Under the pieces are notes generated by a model. It was not told the DNA's origin, ran no database searches, and worked only from the letters and a program-made list of their open reading frames with translations. DNA of 64,000 nucleotides from Flavobacteriales bacterium (lineage in GTDB: Bacteria > Bacteroidota > Bacteroidia > CAIKAF01), in the NCBI GenBank assembly GCA_025451235.1, contig JANWKT010000020.1, positions 48,032 to 112,031 on the forward strand, given 5' to 3'. Both the position numbers and the translations under genes were made by a program. Shown here in pieces: positions 13,136-59,165 of the stretch (position 1 is its first letter; every line of letters begins with the position of its first letter).

Positions 13136-13210
13136 TGGCGGCCTGCCTGCTATAGTGCAGGCCTGCGCTCCGGCAGGCAGGCTCCCCGGCTATCCAACAG
13201 GCAAGCCAGG
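13136..13210. repeat. GC-rich nested palindromic element: gcctgcctgc – gcaggcctgc (self-palindrome) – gcaggcaggc
   Basis: Three related decamers at 13141-13150, 13157-13166 and 13174-13183. The outer two are reverse complements, and the middle one is a perfect palindrome made from half of each. It stands out as locally GC-rich in an AT-rich divergent intergenic region. Confidence 0.45.
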
Positions 13211-21164: not shown

Positions 21165-21590
21165 ATGAAGGGAATCTTTTTTATTATATTGGTTTTTATC
21201 TTAACCACTTCATTGGTACATACCCAAGTATTTATAGAAATTGAGGGAGAAGACAAAAGTGAGCTTCGAGGTACTAATATTCGAGGAGGATGTCCAATAC
21301 CCATACTTCCAGAATATCCAGGAGGCATAGACAGCTTACACGCATTTCTTAATCGAAATCTTACCTTACCAAAACCTGATACCTGTCAGGAAGAAAAAAT
21401 CTGGATTGTTTTTACCATTGATTCCACTGGTCAAGTCGTCGATATTTCGTCAGTAAGAGGAGGTTGTAAAGCATATATTGATGAAGCTATCAGAGTATTT
21501 TCTATCATGCCCAAATGGATACCAGGTAAATCCAGTGGTAAACCAACAAAAGTACAATATCGGCTTCCTATCATTTTTAAAAAGGAATAA
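21165..21590 (+). CDS. Secreted protein consisting only of a TonB C-terminal-like domain
   Basis: Signal peptide plus PEYPGG…IWIVFTIDSTGQVVDISSVRGG… (TonB_C-like). It has no TM anchor or proline-rich spacer. Confidence 0.55.
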   Translation: MKGIFFIILVFILTTSLVHTQVFIEIEGEDKSELRGTNIRGGCPIPILPEYPGGIDSLHAFLNRNLTLPKPDTCQEEKIWIVFTIDSTGQVVDISSVRGGCKAYIDEAIRVFSIMPKWIPGKSSGKPTKVQYRLPIIFKKE

Positions 21591-21625
21591 AAATTGGACA
21601 TTCCACATGTGCAGACAGTGGTCCA

Positions 21626-21776
21626 TTTATTTTTTGTCAATACCGTTTGTCATCTCGACCTGGATCGGGGAGAATGGCTTGCAGGGAGTGGAGAGATCTC
21701 AAATTTAACGATGAGATTTCTCCACTCGCCGCAGGCAGATCACCCATGGCTGGGTCGAAATGACAAAAAATAAAAG
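21626..21776. repeat. ~150 bp nested inverted-repeat element (outer arms ~22 bp, inner 16-bp stem)
   Basis: Outer arm tttattttttgtca…tctcgacc pairs with ggtcgaaatgacaaaaaataaa (21753-21774), with a 13-nt bulge in the left arm. The inner stem ggagtggagagatctca/tgagatttctccactc has one mismatch around a 10-nt loop. Confidence 0.5.
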
Positions 21777-21779
21777 CCT

Positions 21780-22979
21780 GTGCCGCGTATTTTTCCTACC
21801 TTGCTCCCAACCCCAATCAATCTTTCTATGTCCACCGTTGATATTATACCCCTCACAGCACTGGTCGTTTTTGTTTTCACCGGATTCTTCATGGCCAAGA
21901 TCAAATTATCCAAAATAAAAAAATGGATCATCTCCATCACATTGATGTCATCATCGATGATCATGATATTTGTGTATTTCAATCAGCTGGCTCCCCGTTA
22001 CAGAGATGCATTTTGCATCAATGAAATTACTTATTTCAAGGGGCCTAATGGAAACCTCATCCTTGTTCAACACAATGCATCCGTTCCTTCCAAAGTTTCG
22101 ATCTCCTATTCCAGGTTAAGTGTGTTGGATGCTGAAACCGGAAAGATCATGCATACTGTTGTAGCAGGTCCTTCCATGAGTAACAAAAAAGAATTGTTCC
22201 TGGAATTGGTAACCGATGATAAGATCTGGTATAGCAGTTATAAGTTTGGCTTACATGCCCGGGATCCATATACGGGCAAAATTGTATCAACGGAAAAGGA
22301 CATTATAAAAAGATACCCTCAATTGAACGGATCAACCAAAGTGCAGGTAAAAACGGATGATGGTTACTTGTTCGAATCAAAGCCACCCGATTTTAACCTC
22401 AAAATGATCTCTTATCCTCGCAATAAACTCAATAGTGGTGAAAGCTTTATTCAAGCCGATCGGGAACCACATCATTCTACCTATCAATATATTTCTGCCG
22501 AGGTGCTTGAAGAACATTTGTATAACTTGGATACTTCCTATTTTCGGTTAGCCTGGGATCATGGTATTGCCATTATGGACGCAGAAAAAGGATTCTGCTT
22601 TGAAAATAACGACAAAGATGACCGTGATGTGATGCAACTTATGCTGGCACGTAATACAAAATATGGATATAAGCAGGATAGTTGCCTAAATAACGAACTG
22701 AACCTGAGAAGTCCTTTTATCATCGAAAATTATTTATTGAAAAATCCCAAAAGTCTATTGGTAGGCCATTATGGTTATGATGAAAAGAGGGATATTCAAT
22801 TTTTGATGAGTAGAATAGACCTGGATGGTAATATCTTATGGACCCTCAAACAACATGAGTTAGGCGGAGAACCCAATATTTTTAGTTTAAATAATGGAAT
22901 TTTATATTTAGCCATCAAAGGCAAACTGGTAGCTATTGATCCGAATACAGGAAGTAAAAAATGGTCAATACAGCTTTGA
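21780..22979 (+). CDS. Hypothetical membrane-anchored protein with a C-terminal PQQ/beta-propeller-like region; start uncertain (alternative ATG at 21828)
   Basis: Two N-terminal hydrophobic segments. C-terminal …DGNILWTLKQ…LYLAIKGKLVAIDPNTGSKKWS is PQQ-repeat-like. Confidence 0.5.
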   Translation: MPRIFPTLLPTPINLSMSTVDIIPLTALVVFVFTGFFMAKIKLSKIKKWIISITLMSSSMIMIFVYFNQLAPRYRDAFCINEITYFKGPNGNLILVQHNASVPSKVSISYSRLSVLDAETGKIMHTVVAGPSMSNKKELFLELVTDDKIWYSSYKFGLHARDPYTGKIVSTEKDIIKRYPQLNGSTKVQVKTDDGYLFESKPPDFNLKMISYPRNKLNSGESFIQADREPHHSTYQYISAEVLEEHLYNLDTSYFRLAWDHGIAIMDAEKGFCFENNDKDDRDVMQLMLARNTKYGYKQDSCLNNELNLRSPFIIENYLLKNPKSLLVGHYGYDEKRDIQFLMSRIDLDGNILWTLKQHELGGEPNIFSLNNGILYLAIKGKLVAIDPNTGSKKWSIQL

Positions 22980-26151: not shown

Positions 26152-26883
26152 GTGAACACAACCACCAACGTTAAGCCATATAGCACCGAAAAGTCGAAAA
26201 AGGAAGAGGTGGCAGAAATGTTCAACAACATTTCCCATCGCTATGATTTTTTAAACCGGTTTTTGTCAATGGGGGTTGATATAGGCTGGAGAAAAAAAAC
26301 CGTGAGGGCAGTTGCTACAACAAACCCGCAACGCATTCTGGACGTGGCCACAGGAACAGCCGATCTGGCCATTGCACTTCGAAAAACAGGAGCCAAGGAA
26401 ATTATCGGATGTGATATTTCGGAAGGCATGATGGCCAAAGGAAGGGAAAAAGTGATCAAAAGAGGATTAGAAGACCTGATCCATTTACAACTGGGAGATT
26501 CGGAGCATTTGCCTTTTGATGACAATAGCTTTGATGCGGTAACGGTTGCCTTTGGAGTTCGAAATTTCGAATCACCCCGGGATGGATTAAGAGAAATTAA
26601 CAGAGTATTGAAACCAGGTTGTCGGATCCATGTATTAGAATTTTCAAAACCTGAGAAATTTCCCGTTAAGCAACTCTATTCCTTTTATTTCAAAACCATT
26701 CTACCTTTCTGGGGTAGAATCATTTCCAAAGATAAAGCGGCATATACCTACCTTCCCAATTCTGTAAAGGCTTTCCCTCATGGCGAAGGCTTCCTGCAAC
26801 TGCTGGCTGAATGCGGATTTCGCTCCAATTCGGCAAAAAAGCTTACTTTTGGCATTGCATCGCTCTATATAGGCGAAAAATAA
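26152..26883 (+). CDS. ubiE: Demethylmenaquinone/ubiquinone C-methyltransferase UbiE/MenG
   Basis: VAEMFNNISHRYDFLNRFLSMGVDIGWRKKTV plus the SAM motif VLDVATGTADLA. Probable GTG start. TAAATTTG -7 motif at 26125-26132. Confidence 0.85.
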   Translation: MNTTTNVKPYSTEKSKKEEVAEMFNNISHRYDFLNRFLSMGVDIGWRKKTVRAVATTNPQRILDVATGTADLAIALRKTGAKEIIGCDISEGMMAKGREKVIKRGLEDLIHLQLGDSEHLPFDDNSFDAVTVAFGVRNFESPRDGLREINRVLKPGCRIHVLEFSKPEKFPVKQLYSFYFKTILPFWGRIISKDKAAYTYLPNSVKAFPHGEGFLQLLAECGFRSNSAKKLTFGIASLYIGEK

Positions 26884-31220: not shown

Positions 31221-31365
31221 ATAGGCTTCTCTAAAACCTGTAAATTTCTTCGTTGTATTTCAACCTCAAATGCTCATTTACCTATGTAAACTCCGCTTTT
31301 CGGTTTCATACGCCTCGAAATTCTTTGTTTTTAGAGAAGCCTACTTTAAAGTAAGCTAGTCGATG

Positions 31366-40736: not shown

Positions 40737-42155
40737 ATGGTTTTTAGCAGTATCATATTCCTGGCCTATTTTCTTCCTATCTTTTTGCTCCTCTATTTTA
40801 TTGTGGACAAAAAGTATAAGAATGGATTATTGCTCATAGGTAGTATTATTTTTTATAGCTGGGGAGCCCCTAAATTCATTTTCGTTATTCTGCTCACCAC
40901 CTTTATCGATTTCCACCTGGTAAAATTGATGGATTCAACCCAAAAGAAATTGCATAAAAGAATTTTATTGACCCTTTCCATTTCCATCAATGTAGGATTA
41001 CTCTTCTATTTTAAATATTGTAACTTTTTTATCGGTAACATCAATCGTGTCTTGGGCGTTGCCGGGGGTGGTGAGATCTCCTTGCTCAATGTGATCATGC
41101 CCATCGGGATCTCATTTTATACTTTCGAAACCATTACCTATGTAGTGGATGTGTATAGAAAAGTGCATAAGCCACTTAAAAAATTCTGGGACTATCAATT
41201 ATATATCATCCTCTTCCCCAAATTAATTGCCGGACCCATTATCCGGTATCATGACCTGGCCGACCAGATCACCGAACGTCCGGATAAAGTAGATGATAAA
41301 CTATTGGGATTTTATAGATTTGCTATTGGTCTGGGGAAAAAAGTAATTATTGCCAATTACCTGGGCGCTCAGGCCCAGCATATTTTTAATTGGGATTACC
41401 AACAATTAGATGCAGTGGGTGCATGGATGGGTGCATTATGTTTTACCTTCCAGATCTATTTTGATTTTGCAGGTTACAGTGATATGGCCATTGGTATTGG
41501 CAGAATGTTAGGATTTAAATTTCCCGAAAATTTCCATAACCCCTATACCGCTACTTCTATTACCGATTTTTGGAGAAGGTGGCATATTTCACTGGGCAAA
41601 TGGATGAAGAGTTATTTATACATTCCGCTTGGAGGAAACCGGGTAAAACCCGAAATACTGGTATACGTAAATTTATGCATCGTTTTCCTCATCTCAGGTT
41701 TCTGGCATGGAGCCATGTGGAGCTTTATTCTTTGGGGTGCTTACCACGGTATTTTCCTGGTGCTGGAAAGAGCTTTCTTGTTAAAAGTATATGATAAAAT
41801 AGGCAGAGTTCCTTCGATGATCATTACATTTATTATTGTGGTGGTGGGTTGGGTGCCTTTTAAGCTGGAAAGTGTTCGATTAAGCTGGCAATATATTAAA
41901 GCCATGTTTAGCTTTGAGGTAAGTGGCAAGTTCCATTGGGACCATGAATTTTATTTTTATTTTTTTCTGGCAGTTTTCTTTTCCTTCTTTACGGTTTCTA
42001 AATGGGGGCAAAAGATCCAGGATAGCATTTATGTAAAGGAATATGGAAATGTAAAACATGCCTTGGCAACAGTTATAAGTATTGCATTGATGATCGTATG
42101 TGTTGGTTTTATTGCGGCGAATGGATTTAACCCTTTTATTTATTTTAGGTTTTAG
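40737..42155 (+). CDS. MBOAT-family membrane O-acyltransferase (AlgI/DltB/PatA-like)
   Basis: Multi-TM protein with the conserved His in FWRRWHISLGKWMKSYLYIPLGGN. Confidence 0.85.
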   Translation: MVFSSIIFLAYFLPIFLLLYFIVDKKYKNGLLLIGSIIFYSWGAPKFIFVILLTTFIDFHLVKLMDSTQKKLHKRILLTLSISINVGLLFYFKYCNFFIGNINRVLGVAGGGEISLLNVIMPIGISFYTFETITYVVDVYRKVHKPLKKFWDYQLYIILFPKLIAGPIIRYHDLADQITERPDKVDDKLLGFYRFAIGLGKKVIIANYLGAQAQHIFNWDYQQLDAVGAWMGALCFTFQIYFDFAGYSDMAIGIGRMLGFKFPENFHNPYTATSITDFWRRWHISLGKWMKSYLYIPLGGNRVKPEILVYVNLCIVFLISGFWHGAMWSFILWGAYHGIFLVLERAFLLKVYDKIGRVPSMIITFIIVVVGWVPFKLESVRLSWQYIKAMFSFEVSGKFHWDHEFYFYFFLAVFFSFFTVSKWGQKIQDSIYVKEYGNVKHALATVISIALMIVCVGFIAANGFNPFIYFRF

Positions 42156-44528: not shown

Positions 44529-46586
44529 CTACCTAAAGCGGCTGCTAAAGTAGCCTTCATCGGCTATTGAATAAAAGTCGATGTTTTCTTCAGCCAATAG
44601 TTCCTTAAATTTTTTGATCTTCTTTACCGGATGATTGTTCAGGAGGATCACCTTTTTGAATCGAAACTGTTCCTTTAACAGATCTGTATCCAGGTATTTC
44701 AGGTTGGAAAGCACCAAATAATCGGTGGTCAATATATTTTCAGATCTGGGTATAAATCCTTCTATGAAAAAGAACCTGGTTTCTCTGATCTGGAAGCCTG
44801 GAAGGTTTAATTCAACATCCTCGTGTTGATCCACCCGGTGAAATATACCTTGATGCTGGTGGTTGGTTCTTATAAAAAGACCAAAATCCAGATCGGTGAG
44901 CGGTTTATTTAAAACGTTGATAGCTTCATGTCCACTTACATATTCAATATAGCTGGTTTTATTAAGGTTGTAAACATATATTTCCCTATGTTGCAGTATT
45001 TCAAATCTTCTATAAATAAGCGTGATTGTAAACAAACATAGGATTATTAATCCTACTCTTACATAAAGAACCTTCCTGTACTGAAAGTAGAAAACGGTTG
45101 AAAATAACAATAGATATATTAGCACAGCCTGCCATCGGTTGATGAGTAAATGATCAAGGTATGAATATGGAAGTGTTTCGATCCAATCAATACTTATATC
45201 CAATACCCATAGTAATCCATATAATAATTTCCCCAAAAGCATCGACAACCCAGGCACCTTAAAGAAAATAAGGGCCGCAATACCCACGTAAATGATCAAG
45301 GTGGAAAGAGGTACTGCGATGAGGTTGGAAATCAAAAAAGATAATGGGAATTGTCCAAAATAATATAATACAATGGGAGTAGTAAAAAAGGTAGCAGCTA
45401 ATGAAACTGCGGTTAATTGCCAAATCTGGTTGAGAAGCCAGTACTTTGAATCAAACCATTTCCGCATATATGGATATAAATAAATGATACCAAAGACAGC
45501 AATATAAGATAGCTGAAATCCTACATCAAATAAATAAGCAGGCTGCCAGAACAATAAAAGGAATGCTGAGCTGGATATATTATTATAGGCGTTCCCCTGG
45601 ACCTGGAAGCTGATAATAGGTATTAGCAGGGTAAACATAAGGGAAGCTCTAACAATGGATGGTGAAAAACCAGCGATCAATGCATAACCCCATAAGAAAG
45701 CAATCAGGATAAAGGCTTTCAGTACCCTGGTGTACTTATTTCTATCAAGCGGAAATAATATTTTAGACAATAGTAAAAAGATGATCCCCACATGCAAGCC
45801 TGAAACGGCCAGAATATGCATGGCCCCTACCCTGGAAAAACTGGTTTTGGTTTCCGGATCCAACTCCTCCTGATAGCCCACCAGCAATGCCGTTGCAATA
45901 GAGCTCAGGTTTTCATCAGGGATCATTGAATGAAAAACATGTCGGGTATATTGTACCGATGCTTCTGCAAAATCATCGAGGGTAAAATGGTGATCCTCGC
46001 CAACAATTCTAAAATCCTCCTGCTTTACATAGGTTTGATAAAATATCTCCTTTTTTTCAAGATATTTCTTGTAATTGAATTGATGAGGATTGGCAGGTGA
46101 TTTAGGACGTGCAATATTTGATCTTAAAAAAACAATGTCATCATACTTCCAGAATGCCTGATCTGAAAGAGGAGTATAAATGATCATTTTTTTGCGAATA
46201 TCTATCCAATTACCTCCAATCAACGCACTTTGTACATAAGCTTCCGATTTATACGACCTGGTTTTGGCCACTGGAGTTTGAGTAATTCTGCAGATTACCC
46301 CATCAGCATTTTCCAGATCTACCACCTTCACTTTCCGTGAGTGAAAGTGAGCATCCCCAAAACCCAATACAAAGAAAAATAGCTGAAGGGAAAGCCCCAG
46401 ATAGACCGTTTTCTTATGGTGTAATCTTATTTTCTTCGGAGCAAGGACGGAAAAAAGAAATACCGGGATAATAAGTAAAAAAAGCAAGTAAATAGAAATA
46501 GTGGCAGGTAAAAACTCGTTCAATACAATTCCGGCAATAAATGCTATCAATAACCTTAAAAAAGGATATTTTGAATACGATATCAT
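44529..46586 (-). CDS. comEC: ComEC/Rec2-family competence membrane protein (no recognisable metallo-beta-lactamase HxHxDH motif)
   Basis: DUF4131-like N-terminus followed by a poly-TM competence domain (…FQLSYIAVFGIIYL…). Start taken at the internal ATG. Confidence 0.7.
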   Translation of the reverse strand: MISYSKYPFLRLLIAFIAGIVLNEFLPATISIYLLFLLIIPVFLFSVLAPKKIRLHHKKTVYLGLSLQLFFFVLGFGDAHFHSRKVKVVDLENADGVICRITQTPVAKTRSYKSEAYVQSALIGGNWIDIRKKMIIYTPLSDQAFWKYDDIVFLRSNIARPKSPANPHQFNYKKYLEKKEIFYQTYVKQEDFRIVGEDHHFTLDDFAEASVQYTRHVFHSMIPDENLSSIATALLVGYQEELDPETKTSFSRVGAMHILAVSGLHVGIIFLLLSKILFPLDRNKYTRVLKAFILIAFLWGYALIAGFSPSIVRASLMFTLLIPIISFQVQGNAYNNISSSAFLLLFWQPAYLFDVGFQLSYIAVFGIIYLYPYMRKWFDSKYWLLNQIWQLTAVSLAATFFTTPIVLYYFGQFPLSFLISNLIAVPLSTLIIYVGIAALIFFKVPGLSMLLGKLLYGLLWVLDISIDWIETLPYSYLDHLLINRWQAVLIYLLLFSTVFYFQYRKVLYVRVGLIILCLFTITLIYRRFEILQHREIYVYNLNKTSYIEYVSGHEAINVLNKPLTDLDFGLFIRTNHQHQGIFHRVDQHEDVELNLPGFQIRETRFFFIEGFIPRSENILTTDYLVLSNLKYLDTDLLKEQFRFKKVILLNNHPVKKIKKFKELLAEENIDFYSIADEGYFSSRFR

Positions 46587-59035: not shown

Positions 59036-59048
59036 GGTTAATTTTCAC

Positions 59049-59125
59049 CGAAGTACGAACTTGTACAAACCTACGAACGATTCAAGGTACGGTTCGTAAG
59101 TTGGTATTATTTTATTCGTACTTCG
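59049..59125. repeat. Array of four TACGAAC-containing motifs (two direct, two inverted) forming nested inverted repeats
   Basis: cgaagtacgaac (59049-59060) pairs with ttcgtacttcg (59115-59125). The inner pair is ctacgaacg / cggttcgtaag. It lies between convergent genes. Confidence 0.4.
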
Positions 59126-59165
59126 ATGGAGATAAAGAGATATAGCGGAATACTGGATCAGTTTC

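Follow-up and report, generated by a model that had tools for sequence, protein, structure and literature searches.

What is the long palindrome at positions 21626 to 21776 of a 64,000-nt stretch of Flavobacteriales DNA (contig JANWKT010000020.1; the whole stretch is called the window here), and does it serve the genes beside it or belong to a family of repeats? An initial annotation, made from the letters alone, placed a nested inverted repeat between a TonB_C gene and the next gene and offered three explanations: a structured terminator or attenuator, a riboswitch-like leader for the downstream membrane protein, or a MITE (miniature inverted-repeat transposable element). We found that the palindrome is built from two inverted copies of a single hairpin unit that is dispersed over many phyla, and that in other genomes units of this kind flank the gene of a small GIY-YIG nuclease. 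The element is probably, and we hold this with good confidence, a gene-less inverted dimer of a hairpin repeat of the CGTC/TGTC-tagged repetitive extragenic palindromic (REP), or Ssn-related motif (SRM), class. The repeat-element option was the closest to the truth of the three.

Two inverted units in one palindrome

The nested inverted repeat was confirmed at 21626-21776, together with the left-arm bulge, the 16-bp inner stem and the 10-nt loop that had been described for it. The outer arms are complementary at 14 of 14 positions, and a bulge of ~13 nt follows the left one. Inside them, two long arms of 56 nt each (21646-21701 and 21712-21767) are 73% complementary and include an inner stem of 16-17 bp (GGAGTGGAGAGATCTCA/TGAGATTTCTCCACTCG) with the 10-nt loop AATTTAACGA. 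Folded as RNA, the + strand reached a minimum free energy (MFE) of -78.2 kcal/mol (z = -8.2), which 0 of 200 shuffled sequences equaled, and the - strand reached -67.3 kcal/mol (z = -6.3), again with no shuffle folding as well. The G+C content is 51% in the core versus ~37-40% in the flanks. The palindrome is far beyond chance, and its structure is real.

The earlier description was accurate as to the palindrome but missed its organization: it is two inverted copies of one 52-nt unit, each with its own internal stem. A unit pattern of 23 positions, GTCATYTCGAC-N(5-35)-TGGAGARATCTC, matched exactly at 21649-21700 (+) and at 21713-21764 (-), where no match was expected by chance in the window. 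The parts of the element are as follows.

21626-21639, + strand: outer left arm TTTATTTTTTGTCA, complementary to 21761-21774 at 14 of 14 positions
21649-21700, + strand: left unit, 52 nt, exact match to the unit pattern
21701-21712, no strand: 12-nt spacer between the units, the loop of the long hairpin; in full-length relatives (L058 and L037 in our numbering of loci) the GIY-YIG gene stands here
21713-21764, - strand: right unit, 52 nt, composed of GTCATTTCGACC, a 27-nt insert and GTGGAGAAATCTC; exact match to the unit pattern
21761-21774, + strand: outer right arm TGACAAAAAATAAA, the first four bases of which are the foot of the right unit

The unit follows the scheme 5'-(T)GTC-AT[Y]TC-GA-CC...G-T-GG-AG-GA[R]AT-CTC, and the left unit runs in that order from a T-preceded GTC tag through ATCTC, GA, CC, a 27-nt tip insert, G-T-GG, AG and GAGAT to a CTC tail. 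When the left arm was folded alone as DNA, ATCTC paired with GAGAT in the MFE structure. The right unit carries TTC/GAA where the left unit carries CTC/GAG, and its ATTTC pairs with GAAAT; that is, the arms differ at a covarying Y/R pair, with Watson-Crick pairing intact within each arm. Both arms have a TGTC tag, an AT stem start and a C directly after the stem. Their tips are equal in length (27 nt) and ~52% identical. Since the tips are this divergent and fold weakly, the copy looks old, which suggests an inverted duplication that has drifted.

On the left side, ATACCGTT (21640-21647) and the tag T (21648) separate the outer arm from the left unit, and TGTCA is present twice (21635-21639 and 21648-21652). 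Complementarity runs 9-10 nt past the tags (TTTATTTTT/AAAAATAAA), an unusual extension, as in other dimers of the family usually only ~1 nt outside the tag is complementary. The arrangement suggests that the dimer may have originated when DNA was duplicated in inverse orientation together with some of its flank, and that a small (13-nt) insertion or duplication came later. No direct repeat of the kind left by target-site duplication was found at either candidate boundary, 21626/21774 or 21649/21764. The defining motifs of ribozymes (hammerhead or other), integron attC sites, CRISPR arrays and box C/D k-turns, considered as further candidates, are absent from the sequence.

A dispersed repeat family and the gene it flanks

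The unit pattern was matched against the genome_contigs set with one genome per species, as a sample of taxa rather than a census, and at least 120 genome stretches across many phyla carried it. Among the matches listed, to which the counts in this and the next paragraph also refer, the hosts on the Bacteroidota side are Bacteroidales and Flavobacteriales, including Zunongwangia, Flavobacterium and Pedobacter; further hosts are Rhodothermales, Clostridia, Coriobacteriia, Bifidobacterium, Patescibacteria, Saccharibacteria, Verrucomicrobiota, Acidobacteriota, Gammaproteobacteria, Treponema and others. Several metagenome-assembled genomes matched on more than one contig, and the densest 8-kb locus held up to 5 units by the exact pattern and up to 10 by a looser unit definition. 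The smallest unit is 28 nt (GTCATTTCGACCGAAGTGGAGAAATCTC); the usual one is 36-38 nt, with a tip such as GAGCGAAGCGAG that contains a GCGAAGC mini-hairpin, and the largest are ~58 nt, with longer self-complementary tips. Units avoid coding sequence and are mostly intergenic: open frames of at least 150 aa hold 24% of them versus 83% of the bases. The commonest layout, which accounts for 56 of 110 neighbor pairs, is a unit, 5-60 nt and an inverted unit, the same architecture as in the window. Single units and tandem units are also common, and units occur in all orientations relative to genes. A single copy, which had been held out as the mark of an incidental palindrome, is indeed what the 64-kb window contains, but the family as a whole is anything but single copy.

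Variation within the family indicated which hairpin is maintained. The Y and R positions, left free in the pattern, form a Watson-Crick pair in all 114 distinct units (T-A in 85, C-G in 29), and a second pair, between the base after GAC and the base before TGGAG, is C-G in 81 units, T-A in 23 and something else in 10. Because this covariation lies inside the arm, with 114 of 114 pairs intact and C-G alternating with T-A, the arm folds on itself. Within inverted pairs, the two arms differ at the covarying triplet in 26 cases and agree in 24, and the window copy is of the differing kind; given this near-even split, it is the arm hairpin, and not the long one, that is under selection. The deduced arm fold begins with an unpaired (T/C)GTC (of 142 occurrences, 94 have T and 40 have C before the GTC) and continues with a stem of A-T, T-A, Y-R, T-A and C-G; tandem G.A/A.G mismatches follow, then C-G, a bulged T, C-G or T-A, and the variable tip. 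The 3' end is an unpaired CTC. Rfam returned no match at the gathering score for 15 loci of the family, and a full-text literature search with the arm sequences found primers only.

The tips and the tandem arrays deserve separate description. Unit tips often contain GCGAAGC, GCGTAGC or GCGCAGC flanked by further G.A/A.G pairs (L001-L120). The oligonucleotide d(GCGAAGC) is an exceptionally stable DNA mini-hairpin, and tips of this type would fit a function as single-stranded DNA (ssDNA) rather than RNA. Four loci (L035, L093, L097 and L089) hold tandem same-orientation arrays in which units of different sub-families are separated by irregular spacers of 17-40 nt; GTCATCTCGACC..., for instance, alternates with GTCATCCTGAGC... 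or GTCATCTTGAGC..., and L089 also has tandem GGTCTCTCCRCTTCGG repeats after a unit. Such mixed arrays resemble BIME-like mosaics.

Open reading frames (ORFs) of at least 90 aa from the listed loci, at least 120 in number, were clustered. The only recurrent neighbor among them was an ORF of ~95 aa in L037, L058 and L076, directly abutted by units, and its product is a single-domain GIY-YIG protein (PF01541, E = 1e-15 to 1e-18); no transposase ORF recurs near units among the 120 listed loci. In L058 and L037 the gene lies between two inverted units, and its stop codon overlaps the start of the downstream inverted unit (TGAGAT...). Since the same two units are a mere 12 nt apart in the window element, it has the form of a gene-less, REPIN/MITE-like derivative. 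Unlike these two loci, L076 has its GIY-YIG gene between two dimers: a near-identical 87-nt dimer, consisting of a GTCATTCCGAGC... unit and an inverted GTCATTTCGACC... unit, stands at 2085-2171 and again at 2507-2593, one on each side. This layout may be a trace left by the copying of the gene or of the dimer.

The association held in the reverse direction as well. An alignment of the three GIY-YIG proteins led to 80 metagenome loci (L121-L200), and counts were made on the 71 genes with at least 150 nt of flank on both sides. By a tag-stem-tail rule (GTCAT-N3...N3'-ATC), a unit was present within 150 nt of 55 of these 71 genes (77%) and on both sides of 35 (49%), and 27 had a forward unit upstream plus an inverted unit downstream. 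For comparison, the remainder of these loci held a background of 0.13 units per 300 bp, and shuffling yielded 3 units in 186 kb. The hairpin body varies by sub-family (TTGCGAGG, CCTGAGCG, TCCCGCG, TTTCGACC and others), and the feet do not vary (GTCAT and ATC(T)). The sub-family to which the window copy belongs has units next to the GIY-YIG gene in three loci (L058, L147 and L151) and in the same locus as the gene in two more (L142 and L167); L076 is also counted among the loci where this sub-family flanks the gene.

Near-exact copies of the Neisseria transformation sequence (NTS, CGTCATTCCCGCGMAVGCGGGAATCYRG) flank 3 of the 80 GIY-YIG genes. NTS is the oriented form of dRS3 and, together with the SRMs, flanks ssnA, which encodes a 94-aa single-domain GIY-YIG protein of cd10448 (Chenal et al., Nat Commun 2025; PMC11893778). 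Because of these three loci, the genes found here are placed in the Ssn protein family. For small GIY-YIG proteins, NCBIfam has no model and the PDB yielded distant UPF0213 structures only. Moreover, since its relatives flank a gene for such a nuclease, the window element is placed with the REP/REPIN-like CGTC-tagged or SRM class.

Inside the window, three weaker matches were rejected as further copies. One with 3 mismatches at 41065 lies inside coding sequence and is due to chance; the tag-stem-tail matches at 26454-26523 (-) and 46137-46185 (+) have long, unstructured interiors, and about one chance match per 64 kb is expected for this rule.

Setting, rival explanations and a putative mechanism

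The element lies between two co-oriented genes, 58 nt from the upstream stop codon to the left unit and 64 nt from the element to the downstream start.

21165-21590, + strand: upstream gene, 141 aa; its TonB_C domain is weak (PF03544, E = 4e-5, slightly below the cutoff)
21828-22979, + strand: downstream gene, 383 aa from the ATG at 21828 (399 aa from a GTG at 21780 in database entry P0001)

The downstream protein has a hydrophobic N-terminal segment and a weak PQQ_2/BamB-like match. A 59-aa ORF (MDIPHVQ...GRNDKK; 21594-21773, + strand) spans the whole element; no homologue sharing words with it was present in a set of 5.8 billion proteins, and it is almost certainly spurious. ORFs that run across such repeats are a likely source of false "hypothetical proteins."

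A palindrome in this position could act in the transcript: the TonB_C mRNA would end in a very stable RNA hairpin that terminates or attenuates transcription into the downstream gene or shields the upstream mRNA from 3' exonucleases. Its RNA folds at -78 kcal/mol directly between a co-oriented stop and the next start, most REPs stand downstream of ORFs, with many believed to be transcribed (PMC3733652), and protection of mRNA has been reported for some. The canonical form of a terminator was nevertheless unsupported. The T-tract that was said to follow the stem is not adjacent to it: on the + strand the hairpin is bordered on its 3' side by A-rich sequence, ACAAAAAATAAAAG, that itself supplies the 3' half of the outer stem; a run of five T is found no nearer than 21790-21794, ~15 nt beyond the stem; and a terminator scan made no call at the element. 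In addition, the conserved tag, the orientation, the intra-arm covariation and the G.A mismatches are those of a protein-recognized ssDNA hairpin, Ssn does not act on RNA (PMC11893778), and units occur in all orientations beside unrelated genes. We consider a transcript role unlikely as an account of the element; it is at best secondary and leaves the origin of the element unexplained, and if the TonB_C transcript is affected at all, that would be incidental to the great stability of the hairpin as RNA. As for a riboswitch-like or protein-binding leader that regulates the downstream membrane protein, it has in its favor a structured region directly upstream of a gene. Rfam gave no match at the gathering threshold anywhere in the window, however, and at E <= 10 on 21400-22000 returned only spurious microRNA-hairpin matches; the same unit stands beside unrelated genes in many phyla, and a near-perfect long palindrome lacks the asymmetry of a ligand pocket. 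Nor was the element conserved at the two orthologous sites compared. The closest retrievable orthologue of the downstream gene (L201, 62% identity) has a readable upstream region of 166 nt without a unit, and no TonB_C gene upstream; on the contig of P0002, only 61 nt separate the orthologue from the 154-aa gene before it, which leaves no room for the element. Both relatives are distant; their sites argue against a conserved leader, an explanation whose probability we regard as negligible, and the missing element at the orthologous site may be taken as weak evidence for an insertion. Being single copy in the window is what an incidental palindrome, devoid of history and function, would show. 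That explanation is scarcely credible and is refuted by the unit-pattern matches: both arms match exactly a 23-position pattern shared with at least 120 other stretches, and the folding z score is -8.

Two further alternatives are mobile elements. A classical MITE would derive by deletion from an insertion sequence (IS) with a DDE transposase, and its terminal inverted repeats would serve its cut-and-paste movement; such repeats are indeed present in the element, which is ~116-150 bp long and intergenic. The MITE option came close, as the element does belong to a dispersed, multicopy family of hairpin repeats. In its classical sense it is very unlikely, given that the candidate boundaries lack a direct target-site duplication, that no transposase ORF recurs near units in the 120 listed loci, that full-length relatives carry a GIY-YIG nuclease and not a DDE enzyme, and that the common single and tandem units are not predicted by transposition that depends on terminal inverted repeats. 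Mobilization as a REPIN by a REP-associated tyrosine (RAYT) transposase of the HUH/Y1 type would suit the architecture of two inverted hairpins with a short spacer and unpaired conserved 5' tags, as described by Bertels and Rainey (2011; PMC3116915). The tag is (C/T)GTC instead of GTAG or GGAG, however, Di Nocera et al. found no RAYT flanked by CGTC REPs (PMC3733652), and the gene flanked in the loci that we examined is GIY-YIG. We give this proposal, too, very little credence.

Several points also weigh against the SRM-type dimer that we favor. A second dimer is absent from the 64-kb window by blastn-short and pattern search, and tblastn found no ssn-like gene there. The arms alone fold weakly (DNA MFE of -3.0 and -6.1 kcal/mol) versus -36 kcal/mol for the long inter-arm hairpin; in fully single-stranded DNA, the long hairpin would mask the units. 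The published SRM search sequence, HGTCWYN(0-2)YYVSBRHN(0-5)WNVSBRGN(0-2)RNCYNB, matches neither window arm nor the canonical 28-nt unit and has 0 matches in the window, and the NTS control matches. Finally, the IS-like NTS-ssnA-NTS layout has been remarked on, with mobility of SRMs given as only a hypothesis (PMC11893778). The class assignment is made because of the feet, the orientation, the dimer form and the gene association of the sub-family, and not the published pattern.

Work on the Ssn enzymes suggests how such a dimer might be acted on. SsnA binds its hairpin as ssDNA only, not as double-stranded DNA or RNA, and cuts a few nucleotides 5' of it; among Ssn enzymes, only those of Neisseria and Wolbachia have been shown to bind and cleave ssDNA (PMC11893778). 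Cutting depends on the three bases ahead of the palindrome and binding, above all, on the C that follows it, and in Neisseria meningitidis the action of SsnA lowers transformation by NTS-bearing DNA (PMC11893778). We infer that the sub-family and the window copy would be recognized in the same way. When DNA turns single-stranded, during replication or repair or as incoming transforming DNA, each strand of the dimer would present one correctly oriented unit. A cognate Ssn nuclease, if encoded in the genome, would bind the unit hairpin and cut a few nucleotides 5' of the GTC tag. With one oriented unit per strand, cleavage would be expected on opposite strands, once at either outer edge of the dimer, a geometry extrapolated from the published cleavage position. 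Dimers may spread with the help of the nuclease.

A further proposal goes beyond class membership: that gene-less dimers are non-autonomous elements copied or moved by Ssn acting on ssDNA hairpins, and that they represent a G.A-mismatch lineage, overlooked by current SRM searches, with horizontal spread over more than ten phyla, Patescibacteria and Clostridia among them. We regard this as possible but, on balance, doubtful. The unit-gene-inverted-unit layout, the gene-less dimers with the same ends, the multicopy dispersal and the missing element at the orthologous site are compatible with Ssn-driven mobility, and none of these observations demonstrates movement. If the proposal is true, it would describe a prokaryotic transposon class built on a GIY-YIG enzyme. 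Gene-less dimers are natural material for testing mobility, a question that belongs to the class and not to the window copy.

The window, with 39% G+C and genes that include a TonB-dependent receptor with a CarboxypepD_reg domain and a DUF7935 gene, a content that looks like that of a Bacteroidota genome, contains other inverted repeats. At 13141-13182, a GC-rich near-perfect palindrome (GCCTGCCTGCTATAGTGCAGG/CCTGCGCTCCGGCAGGCAGGC) in an AT-rich intergenic stretch has further GC-rich sequence after it; this hairpin is an element of another kind, and a similar CCTGCC...GGCAGG tip is found inside a unit of L018 (Zunongwangia). At 31222-31343, two 27-nt arms (TAGGCTTCTCTAAAACCTGTAAATTTC/GAAATTCTTTGTTTTTAGAGAAGCCTA) are 81% complementary and 68 nt apart, with a sequence unrelated to the palindrome at 21626-21776. 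An inverted repeat at 806-869 has 30-nt arms, a 4-nt loop and a T-rich run (TTTTTGTTTT) inside the 3' arm, which gives it a terminator-like look, and one at 59038-59136 has 22-nt arms that are 55 nt apart.

Comparison with published hairpin repeats

Classical MITEs such as Correia/NEMIS, ERIC and RUP share with the element a small size, an intergenic position, inverted-repeat ends and the capacity to form a long RNA hairpin; they differ from it in having target-site duplications and a parent IS with a DDE transposase. REPINs are closer. According to Bertels and Rainey (PMC3116915), they too consist of two inverted REP hairpins that form a longer hairpin, and they are seen as non-autonomous partners to one gene, for a nuclease or transposase, that the repeats bracket. 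Unlike the REPIN/RAYT system, the present family has a YGTC tag, not GTAG/GGAG, and brackets a GIY-YIG gene (PF01541), not Y1_Tnp; moreover, transposition is documented for REPINs and not for SRMs.

The CGTC-tagged REPs, families CGTC-1 to -4, were described by Di Nocera, De Gregorio and Rocco (BMC Genomics 2013; PMC3733652) as repeats with an unpaired CGTC or TGTC (or CCTC) tag, A-T at stem positions 1-2 and a short unpaired tail, which occur mostly as inverted dimers in intergenic positions just downstream of ORFs, without a transposase; the class takes in the Neisseria dRS3 and the Rickettsia RPE-4/RPE-6 repeats. In the window element, too, both arms begin with TGTC followed by AT...AT and end in an unpaired tail, and dimers of the family are inverted and intergenic; they lie between ORFs that are unidirectional or convergent, close to where the upstream ORF ends, and have no tyrosine transposase associated with them. 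The dimensions differ: in contrast to the uninterrupted 8-9 bp stem and 4-5 nt loop of the CGTC-tagged REPs, the stem here is 5 bp, G.A/A.G and 1-2 bp, and the long tip, 27 nt in the window, ranges from 5 to 35 nt over the family. The hosts also differ, as CGTC-tagged REPs are mostly alphaproteobacterial and the present family includes hosts among Bacteroidota, Clostridia and Patescibacteria.

The SRMs offer the closest parallel in gene association. Like them, the units are oriented inverted-repeat hairpins of 20-50 nt (with ATCTC/GAGAT and ATTTC/GAAAT pairing in the window), and both window arms have an unpaired (C/T)GTC directly 5' of the stem and a C directly 3' of it (...GAGAT-C-TC and ...GAAAT-C-TC). 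Many intergenic copies that bracket a ~95-aa GIY-YIG gene are found for the family in other genomes, although not in the window. Unlike published SRMs, the units combine a 5-bp stem, tandem G.A/A.G mismatches, a second short stem and a tip of 5 to ~35 nt, and because the mismatches and the long tip break it, the published pattern fails on this sub-family. Indeed, that pattern found a motif within 200 nt of 13 of the 80 Ssn-like genes, whereas the tag-stem-tail rule found a unit within 150 nt of 62 of 80, which indicates that the pattern is narrower than the class.

These comparisons bear on annotation. The palindrome at 21626-21776 should be annotated as a REP/SRM-type repeat dimer and not as a regulatory leader. 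Since a very widespread sub-family, GTCATYTCGACC...GGAGARATCTC with its tandem G.A pairs and variable tip, escapes the published search pattern, the spread of Ssn and SRMs in Bacteroidota, Clostridia, Patescibacteria and other phyla is probably underestimated, as are the published SRM counts. Every sub-family of this kind may represent a new specificity among site-specific ssDNA nucleases. Among Ssn homologues, a motif has been reported nearby in 71% and on both sides in 42% (PMC11893778), and the 77% and 49% obtained here from independent data mirror these values. Together, the comparisons place the element in an existing class, described in 2013 and 2025, as a member of a distinct sub-family that is set apart by the published pattern and by its dimensions.

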